Assembly (NCBI GenBank): GCA_000934665.2
Contig: KZ538874.1
Location: forward strand, 1 to 43,230
Direction: 5' to 3'
Length of the DNA: 43,230 bases
DNA from: Catajapyx aquilonaris
Taxonomy: Eukaryota
The position numbers and the translations under genes were made by a program. The notes beneath the pieces are model-generated. The model worked only from the letters and a program-made list of their open reading frames with translations. It did not search any database and was not told the DNA's origin. Numbering within the stretch: the first letter of the stretch is position 1; each line of letters starts with the position of its first letter. Positions 23,065-29,100 of this stretch are shown here, in pieces.

Positions 23065-23120
23065 ATGGGAAACTCAGTCGCAGTCGCTATCAAGCAACAC
23101 CGAGCGAGTAGGTCCAATCA
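23065..23120 (+). CDS. Malic enzyme alternative first coding exon A ([19 protein letters not shown])
   Basis: ATG at 23065, 56 nt open, ends in phase 2 at GTAAGT (23121). In frame with the acceptor at 27488. Confidence 0.7.
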
Positions 23121-26100
23121 GTAAGTCACTCTTCATTTTGTATATAGCCAAGGTATCATTTTGGTGCAATATTTTGTGAAGAATCTGCCCACATAAAATC
23201 ACTCGAAATAGCAATTTAGATACTATTTATAAAGCCATATTTATTGCAAATTGACACGCGACTATAAATAAAAAAATCAGTGGGTATGACCTGGTATGAC
23301 GGAATAAAATATTGAAGGTCCAAAGGTAGTGGCGCGTTCGAGCGCTCCGTGATCAAAGTCACCTTATCGCACATTGCAAAACAAGTCCAACTCACGAAAG
23401 GACGGATGTTGAAAGAAAATGTGAACTGCACATGTTCATATATGTGATCTAATTTTGAACCAAAAGAATATTCCAGCATGCTATAAGTATCGAAGTTTTA
23501 AAAAAAAAAAAGTACACACCGTTACACAGCCCATCAAAAAAAATCCCGGTGCAATTTGATGTGTTTACAGTGACGTAACCCATCTCAAGTGATACTTTAG
23601 GATTAGATAATTATCTGATGATTCTGGTCAACCTGATGTTCTTCCCAAAGCCCCCACATTACAAGACGAGACCTTTCACGTGACAAGCTGTGGCCGGTTT
23701 TCTGTGCAAGAGCCAAAAGATGTAAATAATTTATCGCATTTTTTTCCTAAGACTATATAAGGTCGCTTTGGGGCTTGACTCGTGTAACATTCTAAGCTTG
23801 AAGAGTCAACAGTGCACATTTTTTATTATTTCTATCCGATCAGTGATTTGGGAGTGCGTAACCATGCGATTCCAAGAGTAAGTATACCGTCACTTCATGG
23901 AGACCTGTTCGTGTCGTTTAATTCGATTTTAAATTTGCTCGTGCCCAACCTTGAGTCGGTTAGCTTGCCAGGTAAACTTCCCGTCCTGTGCGTCACGAGT
24001 GGCTAATTCAGTTAGTAACTTCGAAATTATTGTTAACTAAGGAGAGGCAATGACGTAACTACAAATCGGCTGGGCTTGCATAAGCATTGCTCTTGCCTCA
24101 AGATCTAAGGTGCGATTTCCCAAGGTAATTTCCGCAGAGTGATGACTGATGCAATGAACTGTAATTTAGCATGTGTCGGTCATAGTGTAATGAGAGTCTA
24201 ATAGTGACCATGTCTAGTGACAGGAAAGTGACAGTTCTCAAATATTACAGCAGCATGTTCTATAGAAATCTGTCATATTCACTATATACGTTGAAATTTA
24301 AGGATTGGGAAATTATGTTCAAAATTTCACTTGGTGGCTTTTATCAATTATTTTGAGAGAAAATGTATCAATGCAAGTTGGGTTTGCCCATAAAAATTGA
24401 TTCATTGGATAACTTTTTCGCACTTCAGCTAAGTTATCAGCAGCTATCTACAAGTATGCAGCATGCTTGCGAGCTAATCGCACTAGTGCAGAAGCGTGTT
24501 CATGACTTATCTTAAAGATTAATGCATCATTGCATATTGTACATCTTGTATAATCTCACAAGTTATATAGTGTTGCAGAGATACGTAATTTCCTAAACAA
24601 TCGGGGCGGCTTTTAACCTTTTGAAAATCTTCGAAATGTGGAACGATGATAGTCATATCGGAGTAATTTAATTTGAAGACGGCATTACCCGTAATTTTTC
24701 TTTCTCAAATATTTCTCTATAGAATTGTTCCTGGAAATAGCTGACTTGAAGATCAGAAAATACGCCTCAAGAATAATCTGTCAAAATGACAAACGACCAT
24801 GTGACTTTGGCCGTCCTGTATTATTTTTGAAGCATCATTTTGCATTTTATTGCTTCAGGATGCTGTACAATGCATATTGTTTTCCTTATCCACCACATCA
24901 CCTTCACAGCCATCCAAAGGTGTTTCCCCTCGAACTAATGAAACCCTTTCCCACGGTTCAGTACAGCCGACTCATAGACGCTAATTAAGTCACAGATCTA
25001 CAAAAAAAAAATAGATCTATTTATGGCACTAATCAGCATTTTATTAAGAAACCGTTATCTGTTGTTTTTTTTCTCCGCTCCATGGCCACCTAAAATGTTC
25101 TCGCCAGATGTCTCCCAAGCCTTTCGAGTACCGCCACCTGCACTCATTGCGCCGCACTTGCTGTAAATCGCAGTGTTATTGACCTTTACCTTCACATCGA
25201 GACACGTCAGTGTATATAAGACCATTTCCCGGGGCAAATGTGGTCATGTCGGCCCTGAAAAGTGCGGTCATATTCGTGCTAGCTCCTTTCCTGGCACTGT
25301 ACGTGTACCACCTCCACGGGGAAGCACTCTGGCAAAAGCTGCACCTGTGGACGTAAGTTGTGCAGCTGACAAAACCACGCGGAAAAAGTTTGTCGTGACG
25401 TAATCTGTGTACCACGTGTGTGCTGGGTTGTTTATGCCGGATTGCCGGCTATGCACTTCTCAAGTTTGAAATAGGCGGATTTTTTCTTCTTCATCGCATG
25501 GCTATTAATATTGCAAGGACGGGAGGAGTCGACCACTGTCATCACGCAAGACTTGAAGTTTTACATCTTTCCTCAAAGTGACTTCCTTGATAGCGTCTGA
25601 TGTCATTGTACCGGGGAAGATTGTTATCGGTCAGCAAAAACAAAGTTTTGTGTAATCACATGTGGCGTGTTTTTTTTTTTAAAGCGTCCATTATACGTGT
25701 CGGAATTACAGCCTAATCGCTATATTGACATGTGAGCAGGTGCCTTTGATTTGGGCACGATTCTATAGTGACTGACAGTGAGTGATTGTGTGTAAGTTTA
25801 TGTGCAGTAAAATATGCTGGCACGTGTGGATGGCAACTTCAGTAGCTAATAACACAATTGGGGAAGAGTCAATATTGCGCACGTAATAATTCTGTATAGG
25901 CTAATAAATCCACGCGTGTCACTCTGTTGCGTGGGAGTAGAAAACTGTTAGATATCAGTTACACTTATTATTATATGTTCATCCTTTATTTATTCGAAAA
26001 CATGTGGATGGAATTATGGAAATCATATGTTTGGTGATTTTCACAAAATATTTGAGCCGATTTTCCCCCATTCCATTATTCCAAGTGACTTGACTGCGTG

Positions 26101-29100
26101 ACATGCAGTATTGTGCATATAGTATACTGCCACATATAATATGGCCTCGAACGCAACAGGTGTACAGTATATTGACGATCAGTGCAGTAGACAAACGTGC
26201 AGTACTGCATGTCACGCAATCAACCGTTTTCTTTATCCAAGGTTGACTTATTTCCTATACCTACAGAGCGGTGGTTTTCCTTCCTAACAAAAAAAAATTC
26301 CCCGACGCAATATAATATTCGGAAATAATGGCCCTGTACCTCCTTAAATTAATGCATTGACATGGTTCTAAACAGAAACCGGCCTTCCAAGGTCGAAACC
26401 ATCCTTGCATTGTTTACATATGCTGAAATATCTGGCAAGTCATTATTTACATTCAAACGCAAACAACTCGCAGGAATAGCGGGGGCTTGTAATGGCATCA
26501 GACCCATGGCCAACATTTCCTGATTTTGATTGCGTAAGATCAGATAAATCTCCGTCGCATTGATACGGAATAAAGCTGGGGTATCTTATTGTTCATGCAC
26601 ATATTGTTGCTCCCGATTCATTTTGTTGTTTGCTTGTTTGGGAGGGAGGCAACGCAACTAATGGAGTAATGGCTATCTGGCTATTAGAAGATACAATTGA
26701 AATTTTTGTAAAATCTTATGCAACATAATGGTAAGAGCCATATCGCACCCACTGTATCTCCGTGGCCCACATACATTGTCAAATGGCCGTCCAATAATGA
26801 GATTTTGCTTCATATACGCCAAATTTTTTTATTGTTATTTGATAGTTCGTATGCATGTGTTTACAACGCGACAATATTACTTCAACAATGGTCCACATTT
26901 GTCACTTCCTGCTCTGGTGTGATGCCTTTTATCTGTAGAGCAGCTTGCGCAGTTGCTGTCCTCTTGTTTGAGTTACGAAGCGCGCACCAGAGCACAGCAG
27001 CTCCAGGTTCGTTTCACATACCATCCCCACCCCACCCAACCCACACCAGAGTTTAACCCCCCCCCCCCCCCTCCACCATACATTCAGTGGATCGAAAAAG
27101 GCACACAGTCTGTGGGGGCAAAGGACCCGGCAACTTCCCCGGCAACCATGTTCTCCGCCAGAGCAATCAGGGCTGCCCTCCTGTAAGTCCCCTCTTTATT
27201 TTGCAATGTGTGTTTTTTTTTTCTTTCCTGGCAATGTACGCAATTAGCACATTCCCGGAACCTGCACCGGTACTACAAGGTGTGGCCTCAGGGTTCATAT
27301 TAAACTGACGGTCACGATATAACCGGGGGGAAAAAACACACAGGGAAAACCACGCAGGATGTAACCGCTAAAAATGATATTAAATAAAAAAAATTGCGAT
27401 TCGCACTACGTATAGATTTCTGAACAGGATGTAATGCTGAAACTGTGCGCATGCCCTGTTAGTACAGTGTGCTGTGTGTATTTCCAGAGGCGGCACCCCT
27501 TCGCCTAGTGGCAGAATCATGGCGAGCGTCAACTCGATGGCGGACAACATGAAGCGTGACAAGCTGGGTCAAAGGACGTACCACACTGGGGACACCATAG
27601 CTCCAGGGATGATCAAGGGGATAGACTACATCAGGGATCCGCGTCTCAACAAGGTACAGTACATACAAGATGGGGTTCAGATGAGGATGTGCCCTCCTTT
27701 TTTTGGCTGACCTTCAAGGGAAGAGGGCGGGTTGTACTGTAGTATATATAGACTGCAATAGGAATGGAAAAAAAAAAAAGTAGAGCAGGCTTCATGGAGG
27801 CGTGACTATAAATAATAATAAAAAAGGTTGCGATTGTTGCTGGGGACGACAAAGTTCGTTTGAATTTGGCGGCGATTTTTGTGGATTAAAAAAAAAACAG
27901 CCTTGGGAGAATGCAACAATTGCACAACTGTTAACAAACGGCTGCTATTTGTTTACAATGGTGAAAATTGCTTTCACCTTGGTCGCTTTTTTTGTTTGTT
28001 TTTTGTAGAGCGACTATATGTGCCAATATAGTCTCATGAATTGCGATGTAACAAGCAGTTGTCTTCTTGCCATTCTTGTTGATGTCTCAAGGTTTCGTTC
28101 CTAATTTGACATGTTAGAGACGGGGGGGACCTGCAATTTAAGTAATGAATGGTAGGCAGTACGAACTGTTTGAAAGTGCTGTCTTATATTGGCCCTCCAA
28201 ATGGGATTGGCACCAAAAATTTGAGGCTAAAGATAGCCTGCCTCTGGACATCCCTATTTTGTAATAAAATCGGGGTGGAGGCTTTCAACAATGGGCTGCG
28301 AAAATGAGTGTTTAAAAAAATATATTGCGCGGTGTGTGTTTGCAAATCTGATAAATCCTAATTACAAAGGTGCTCATCGTACCATAATAATGCCAGCAGG
28401 TCTCTCATGACGTATGTACGTGCAATTGCTATTTCGGCTGCAATTCCGATCGAGCTGTACCTGAATGATTTAAAAAGCGTCTTACGTAATCGAAGGCTGC
28501 CTGCATGTTGAGATATTAATTTCGAAATTGCTGAGAAAGAAAGCTATGTTGGATTTATATCATTGGGATCCATACCCAATTCTACCAAGCCTGCAAACAA
28601 TTATTTCCTAACAAGATTATTTACTTGCATCCATCAAGTTTTCAATAAATGATTTAACAGTTGCATTAATCTTATATTATTGATATAAGTACTAATGACT
28701 TCTCTTGACAGGGAATGGCCTTCAGCTTGCACGAGAGACAAATTCTGGGCATCCACGGCCTCATTCCACCCAGGTTCAAGACCCAGGACGAGCAGGTTCA
28801 GCTCTGCAAGATGAACATTGACCGGTACAGCGAAGACCTGAACAAGTACATCTACCTTGTGGGACTCCAGGTGTGACACTGTCGTCGTAATGCATCAGAT
28901 ACTTAAAACTTAATAATTAACTAACTATGGATTACCTGTTTCAGGATCGGAATGAGAGATTATTCTACCGGCTCCTAAGTGAGCACGTCGAAGAGATGAT
29001 GCCCATCGTGTACACGCCAACCGTGGGGCTGGCCTGCCAGAAGTTTGGACTCATCTACCGGCGACCCAGAGGCCTCTTCATCACCATACATGACAGGGGG

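Follow-up and report, generated by a model that had tools for sequence, protein, structure and literature searches.

We found a malic enzyme gene with four candidate alternative first exons (1a to 1d) on the forward strand of contig KZ538874.1 of Catajapyx aquilonaris. The stretch analysed comprises positions 1 to 43,230 of the contig, and these 43,230 nucleotides (nt) as a whole are called the window from here on. The body of the gene, modelled with GT-AG introns that keep the frame and fitted to a relative from Daphnia (P0080), has ten exons between 27488 and 31101, with a first intron of 1058 nt and later introns of 65-240 nt. Counted from an ATG at 27519, the 11-exon model encodes 587 residues free of stops, and the reading frame is intact. 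The Pfam family malic (PF00390) was detected on two of the exons (E values 7.6e-20 and 9.9e-46) and Malic_M (PF03949) on four (E values down to 8.7e-22); judged by these domains the product is a malic enzyme, as the initial annotation of this DNA had already stated.

The exon that carries the motif VDSKGL suggests an enzyme that uses nicotinamide adenine dinucleotide phosphate (NADP). Among solved structures it scored best with NADP-malic enzymes, NADP forms ranking above NAD forms (ME1, 47.2 bits; ME3, 43.4 bits; against ME2, 35.2 bits), and its VDSKGL is identical, letter for letter, to that of the solved NADP-malic enzymes, which make up all of the aligned chains. The Ser of this motif probably occupies the position of Lys346 in human ME-2, a column that the alignments, which contained no ME-2 chain, do not display. 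A Ser at this position has been tied to NADP preference (excerpts of PMC3228860). The second NADP signature is a Lys where human ME-2 has Gln362; the short exon with the candidate Lys was aligned at E ~0.09, over a segment that begins one residue past this Lys.

Upstream of this body, four short stretches have the form of coding first exons (Table 1). Each begins with an ATG, ends in phase 2 at a GTAAGT donor, has a length that leaves a remainder of 2 when divided by 3, and joins in frame to the acceptor TGTATTTCCAG, whose first exonic base is the A at 27488. The initial annotation had described just such an arrangement of four mini-exons facing a single acceptor, and every coordinate was confirmed both by script and by direct reading of the sequence. 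The ATGs stand in favourable contexts (A or G at -3), and the strongest context belongs to the in-frame ATG inside the common second exon (27519, agaatcATGG). The GTAAGT hexamer is found at all four first-exon donors (23121, 23878, 25353 and 27183) but at only one of the ten internal donors between 27654 and 31102 (that at 31102). Likewise, the introns that follow the first exons are long (0.3-4.4 kilobases, kb), whereas the internal introns are mostly of 65-240 nt.

Table 1. Positions in the window of the malic enzyme gene, of its candidate 5' elements, and of the other features found around it
Feature	Position	Strand	Remarks
Exon 1a	23065-23120	+	56 nt coding part; ATG start, phase 2, GTAAGT donor
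TATATAA 5' of exon 1b	23754-23760	+	104 nt before ATG 23864; no ATG in between
Exon 1b	23864-23877	+	14 nt coding part; ATG start, phase 2, GTAAGT donor
TATATAA 5' of exon 1c	25213-25219	+	33 nt before ATG 25246
Exon 1c	25246-25352	+	107 nt coding part if translated; ATG, phase 2, GTAAGT donor
TCAGT, initiator-like	27084-27088	+	A+1 at 27086; 62 nt before exon 1d; motif match only
Exon 1d	27148-27182	+	35 nt coding part; ATG start, phase 2, GTAAGT donor
Common second exon	27488-27653	+	Single acceptor; internal ATG 27519; own donor AAG/GTACAG
Nine internal coding exons, first five	28712-28870, 28945-29126, 29325-29634, 29721-29903, 29975-30113	+	
Nine internal coding exons, last four	30203-30289, 30530-30672, 30738-30908, 30978-31101	+	
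Canonical terminal exon B	32566-32699	+	Stop 32697-32699; AATAAA at 32695 overlapping the stop
Tandem look-alike terminal exon A	31822-31940	+	Phase-1 acceptor, own stop
Weak fifth candidate mini-exon	22565-22575	+	ATG, 11 nt, phase 2, GTAAGT at 22576
Multi-exon CUB-domain gene, 5' neighbour	8484-20530	+	Four open reading frames over the Pfam cut-off
Single-frame 251-residue protein, 3'	33733-34485	+	Weak RIIa match, 17.7 bits, below cut-off
TMEM181-like gene, 3'	35956-37857	+	GOLD and Wntless-like transmembrane domains
RPB10-like small RNA polymerase subunit, two exons	~39465-40660	-	By eye

Each of the four units could in principle be an accident of sequence, in which case ATG and GTAAGT would have clustered by chance in intergenic DNA and the gene would start at a single unrecognised first exon or at exon 2. 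The open reading frames (ORFs) themselves do not speak on this point: phase 2 followed by GTAAGT closes the unspliced frame of each mini-exon immediately (xxG-TAA, as read from the sequence), so that the end of the frame at the donor is automatic and no independent evidence, which leaves the chance explanation some room. The distribution of the donors is more informative. The plus strand of the 43-kb window has 16 GTAAGT sites, and seven of them fall between 22000 and 28000. When 22000-27487 was shuffled 2000 times with a first-order Markov model, this number was never reached (0/2000; mean 1.6). At least four GTAAGT sites preceded by an ATG-open phase-2 frame were obtained in 3/2000 shuffles (mean 0.47). 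Furthermore, at all four donors the phase-2 frame is the only one with an ATG ahead of a stop, while the window-wide rate per frame is 18/69. The mini-exon pattern thus exceeds chance. Any transcript that started just 5' of exon 2 would also meet several ATGs as upstream ATGs (uATGs), and two of the mini-exons resemble the N-termini of related enzymes (see below); with these points added, an accidental cluster is highly improbable.

Weaker candidates lie in the same region. Two extra plus-strand GTAAGT sites, at 22523 and 22576, are found within 22523-22581, and the second of them closes the fifth mini-exon of Table 1. This donor is preceded by ATGs in the other two frames as well, and a uATG at 22468 opens a different frame that runs through the candidate. 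It is a weak one, and may be a chance occurrence or a non-coding leader. A run of 15 C residues (27057-27071, plus strand) is located ~15 nt 5' of the initiator-like TCAGT that precedes exon 1d.

To place these N-termini in context we compared them with those of relatives, that is, arthropod NADP-malic enzymes, which are known mostly as computational gene models and also as short contigs that resemble complementary DNA (cDNA). A search with a conserved exon returned named matches that were all from arthropods except for one plant-labelled record (among the 120 matches listed), and a profile built from nine crustacean-type sequences added decapods, barnacles, Artemia, an ostracod and many short contigs. 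The window enzyme is ~61-65% identical to the relatives by tblastn, with a maximum of 71% over 582 columns (to Penaeus). In a tree of 56 rows, all of its animals arthropods, it stands on a long branch within a pancrustacean polytomy (Shimodaira-Hasegawa-like approximate likelihood ratio test, SH-aLRT, 86).

The N-termini of 204 relatives were classified by a rule based on the conserved box that ends the second exon. After excluding 23 proteins without the box and five that do not start with Met, 176 were left, of which 29 match the myristoylation pattern, 49 are presequence-like, 31 are short (a start at most 36 residues ahead of the box), two are hydrophobic and 65 have other long N-termini. 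An earlier rule, which anchored 84 of the 204, had given 13, 19, 16, 4 and 32 for the same categories. The two hydrophobic counts (4 and 2) differ because the box-based rule reads only the first 45 residues and requires the box. The short forms begin at the Met equivalent to that encoded at 27519, where the initial annotation had placed the start of a possible further form without targeting; the ATG is in frame, and these 31 of 176 relatives lend that proposal support.

Many of the relatives are annotated with isoforms (X1-X6) among which the N-terminus alone varies. To count them by gene we grouped proteins by an identical core of 200 residues, a procedure that may merge very close species. 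Among the 16 genes for which at least two isoforms were retrieved, ten have an isoform that starts with Met-Gly (MG-type), or nine after dropping P0074, which was rejected as a false positive since it is a truncated form that matches the pattern by accident. A presequence-like isoform accompanies the MG-type one in 5/10 of these genes (4/9 without P0074). The point of divergence is similar as well: isoforms X2, X3 and X4 of Macrobrachium split just ahead of a shared ...GGRV..., and those predicted in the window split just ahead of GG.... As annotated, single genes in the relatives encode several N-terminal classes.

Exon 1a belongs to the first of these classes. N-myristoylation generally calls for Met-Gly at the N-terminus, for a residue at position 6 that is small and uncharged, and for one other than Pro at position 7, and exon 1a fits the corresponding PROSITE-like expression MG{EDRKHPFYW}xx[STAGCN]{P}; its start is followed by basic residues (net charge of +3 in 22). 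The tighter motif MG[NS][ST].[AS]V[AV] occurs at one of the 1627 ATGs of the window (23065), a test that is partly circular because the motif was composed after seeing the window. The same motif opens eight of the relatives, from Homarus, Procambarus, Macrobrachium, Penaeus, Hyalella, Bemisia and, twice, Daphnia. In several crustaceans, cysteines come after the MG-type start, at which palmitate could be attached as well.

Exon 1d is of the presequence-like class. Its product has a net charge of +3 in the first 22 residues, no acidic residue before position 31 and a maximum hydrophobic moment of 0.51, and an Arg located two or three residues ahead of the internal Met appears, by eye, suited to presequence cleavage. 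The start MFSARAIR resembles the MFS.AP[RK] of decapods and the MFSLPLR of Daphnia, and starts of this type, M[FL][STA]x(1-3)[RK], were found in 23 relatives. There is no ATG within the 150 nt before 27148 that would disturb its leader. We regard exon 1d as a probable mitochondrial presequence. Considering these similarities, the starts of exons 1a and 1d are recognisably homologous to N-termini of the relatives, and both are very probably real coding first exons.

Conservation of this kind bears on a second explanation, by which all four exons would be real and serve promoter choice (by tissue, stage or diet), the N-terminal peptides being tolerated by-products that leave the location of the enzyme unchanged. 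Such a role would suit the TATA boxes that two of the exons have for themselves, the initiator-like motif of a third, and the shortness of the extensions, which are poorly conserved past the first 8-12 residues. However, the MG start is kept in malacostracans, branchiopods, a hemipteran and Hymenoptera (29/176; the tighter motif is found in eight relatives), and decapods and Daphnia share the MFS...R start. Such conservation is difficult to account for unless the peptide itself has a function. Promoter choice alone therefore seems improbable to us, if less so than a chance cluster.

The other two exons are less clear. Exon 1b adds five residues devoid of any targeting feature, behind a clean leader and in the context gtaaccATGC. 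Similarly tiny ATG-bearing starts, of one to four residues, are present in relatives such as P0079, P0103 and P0119. It is plausible as a coding first exon, although it is too short for a test of homology. Exon 1c would encode a hydrophobic start with a maximum Kyte-Doolittle mean of 2.39 over 15 residues, which is equalled by only 9 of the 358 open 35-codon ATG frames of the window. Under the earlier rule, hydrophobic starts were also found in relatives, namely in isoform X2 of the barnacle Amphibalanus, in isoform X2 of the mayfly Cloeon and in two contigs of 2.4-2.6 kb that are probably cDNA, since they are too short to hold introns.

Exon 1c is the least certain of the four, and may serve as a leader, with translation of its transcripts beginning at 27519. 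Segments that span a bilayer have ~18-20 or more hydrophobic residues, and the hydrophobic stretch of exon 1c has, by eye, ~16-17 including a proline. The class it would represent is reduced to 2/176 relatives under the stricter, box-based rule. Both of the TATATAA boxes mentioned in the initial annotation are present, but while that of exon 1b is followed by an uninterrupted leader, no more than 33 nt separate the box of exon 1c from its ATG. A uATG in another frame (25238, six codons), 8 nt 5' of ATG 25246, overlaps the start of the exon.

These details can be accommodated if only exons 1a and 1d are coding, with exon 1c, and perhaps exon 1b and the candidate at 22565, as leaders or chance frames and the resulting transcripts translated from 27519 as a plain cytosolic enzyme. 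A TATA box so close to ATG 25246 predicts a transcription start at or beside it, and the next ATG in a message spliced from exon 1c is 27519, which has the best context. For exon 1b, the lack of a homology test and the chance rate of an ATG before the stop (the 18/69 per frame given above) leave it open to the same doubt. On the other hand, only the productive frame holds an ATG at the four sites, the hydrophobicity of exon 1c is seldom matched among open frames, hydrophobic starts do exist in barnacle and mayfly malic enzymes and in the two cDNA-like contigs, and exon 1b combines its own TATA box and clean leader with the context aaccATG. We consider this restricted set of coding exons rather unlikely, yet it is the most serious of the alternatives.

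We think it fairly likely that the locus is one NADP-type malic enzyme gene with four alternative first exons within ~4.4 kb of 5' region. Each of them would have a transcription start to itself and be spliced singly to the acceptor at 27488, so that the catalytic body would be common to all isoforms and nothing but the first 5 to 36 residues would vary. Exon 1a would supply an N-myristoylation-type Met-Gly start that, with the basic residues behind it, would lead to lipid-mediated association with membranes. Exon 1d, together with the shared linker, would form a mitochondrial presequence, which may be removed by cleavage directly ahead of the internal Met, and give rise to a matrix form. Exon 1b would produce a cytosolic form, in practice equal to the product of initiation at ATG 27519, and exon 1c, if its own ATG is used, a hydrophobic N-terminal anchor. 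Exon use in Catajapyx aquilonaris, the promoters, lipidation, import and membrane insertion are all things that we infer from the sequence. The initial annotation had proposed four different types of targeting. Three of these types, as well as the short form, recur in the relatives, several of them per gene, and this part of the proposal stands; the anchor is less secure, considering that exon 1c is possibly only a leader.

Besides what has been said of exon 1c, and of the circularity of the exon 1a motif, a number of results weigh against four targeted isoforms. The loose myristoylation pattern is also matched by 17 ATGs of the window. Two out-of-frame uATGs, at 22971 and 23031, both within 100 nt of exon 1a, overlap its start, for which reason transcription of this exon should begin within ~30 nt of the ATG. 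Among 933 random peptides, 35 are as presequence-like as exon 1d. The rules and cut-offs that assign the N-termini to classes and destinations are our own, crude sequence rules in place of trained predictors, and most of the relatives' isoforms are computational gene models. When exon 2 was searched against longer proteins for a match from the same species or from one closely related, 11 candidates resulted, of which none was significant. When metagenomes were scanned with this exon, 596 pattern matches resulted in one confirmed locus, L001, which is Daphnia-like and 46% identical; it is a distant relative with no bearing on Catajapyx aquilonaris. In L001 (1-625), a contig of 2515 nt, the open frame extends far 5' of a presequence-like MFGLTVRS... 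start, as it does in P0148, and is either a longer N-terminal form or an open 5' leader.

The arrangement proposed here differs from that of the malic enzymes that are best described. Mammals have ME1, ME2 and ME3 as separate genes (excerpts of PMC3228860), as the initial annotation correctly stated for vertebrates, and Drosophila has Men, Men-b and two Men-like genes, also separate (excerpts of PMC6471790). The enzyme and its domains are the same in the vertebrate pair ME1 (cytosolic) and ME3 (mitochondrial), in the Drosophila pair Men and Men-b and in the window, and cytosolic and mitochondrial forms are needed there as well as here. However, vertebrates and Drosophila devote a gene to each compartment, whereas in Catajapyx aquilonaris one gene would serve through the choice of first exon. 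The two membrane-type forms predicted from the window have no described counterpart among vertebrate or Drosophila malic enzymes.

The nearest mechanistic analogue is mammalian NADH-cytochrome b5 reductase, in which an alternative promoter allows one gene to produce a soluble form besides a membrane form that is myristoylated (abstracts of PMC2289487, PMC2133939 and PMC2171821). There too a catalytic domain is shared among products with differing N-termini, one of which has a myristoylation consensus and an anchor. The reductase belongs to an unrelated family, though, and has two forms instead of four with none in the matrix; moreover, its lipid and its localisation have been shown experimentally, while those of the malic enzyme are read from its sequence.

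Closer parallels come from arthropod annotation itself. In Daphnia magna (X2/X4), Macrobrachium nipponense (X2-X4), Hyalella azteca (X1/X3) and Anoplolepis gracilipes (X1-X5), for example, the same classes are mounted on one body. These annotated isoforms are MG-start, presequence-like and short, and diverge, as in the window, at the equivalent point before a ...R-D-[RK]-L-G-Q... box. The layout is therefore not special to this locus but widespread, as predicted isoforms, in arthropod annotation; what distinguishes the window from those records, which are predictions, is that all four classes are found together, including the rarer hydrophobic one. In the portions of the literature that our search covered (subscription papers and older crustacean enzymology were outside its scope), we found no published description of an alternatively started, myristoylated or membrane-anchored malic enzyme. 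The locus would thus be a rather complete example of a layout that is visible in annotation and apparently undescribed in print.

The 3' end of the gene also offers two possibilities. Terminal exons A and B both have phase-1 acceptors that fit the donor 31101/GTAAGT, and their alignments fall on identical positions at the C-terminus of the relatives. Exon B extends the alignment along the C-terminus of the relatives (...AYKTG.A.TYP.P.D) and is the canonical join. For exon A, no AATAAA or ATTAAA was found between 31925 and 32500; this exon may provide an alternative C-terminus, or else be a duplicate of the terminal exon that is in decay.

The DNA between the 5' neighbour, a CUB-domain gene, and the second exon (20.6-27.7 kb) contains no internal or window-wide repeats and no Rfam family, and none of its 69 ORFs of at least 45 residues reaches the curated Pfam cut-off. 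Sub-threshold matches to zf-HIT (E 0.0095) and MCR_beta (E 0.0092) were taken as chance. Another gene, repeat or RNA in this region was rejected on the repeat, Pfam and Rfam scans. On the 3' side, the malic enzyme gene is followed by the RIIa-like ORF, the TMEM181-like gene and, on the opposite strand, the RPB10-like gene (Table 1). A tandem repeat of ~44 nt (~34550-35250) sits between the first two of these, and a peptide of ~37 residues recurs in its ORFs on both strands.

Much of the NADPH used in lipid synthesis and in redox defence comes from malic enzyme, one of its main sources, and the site at which NADPH is produced matters. For vertebrates and Drosophila, each compartment has been described as having its own gene. 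It is possible, although we would stop short of calling it probable, that pancrustaceans keep an ancient one-gene compartmentation instead, with a cytosolic form, a mitochondrial form and a conserved N-myristoylated form and, in some lineages, an N-terminally anchored form as well. If this is true, many arthropods, among them farmed shrimps, crabs, Daphnia and Hymenoptera, would set the location of the enzyme by promoter choice at a single gene. NADPH and pyruvate would be made directly at membranes, in two membrane pools that lie beyond the ME1/ME3 division and are not known in vertebrates, and the lipid-anchored malic enzyme would be a form that has apparently not been studied so far. More speculatively, such a form would give a handle on the local supply of NADPH at membranes, for instance to desaturases, elongases, P450 reductase and NADPH oxidases. 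The gain from the window alone is modest; it would be larger for the general claim, that of a conserved lipid-anchored malic enzyme in pancrustaceans.

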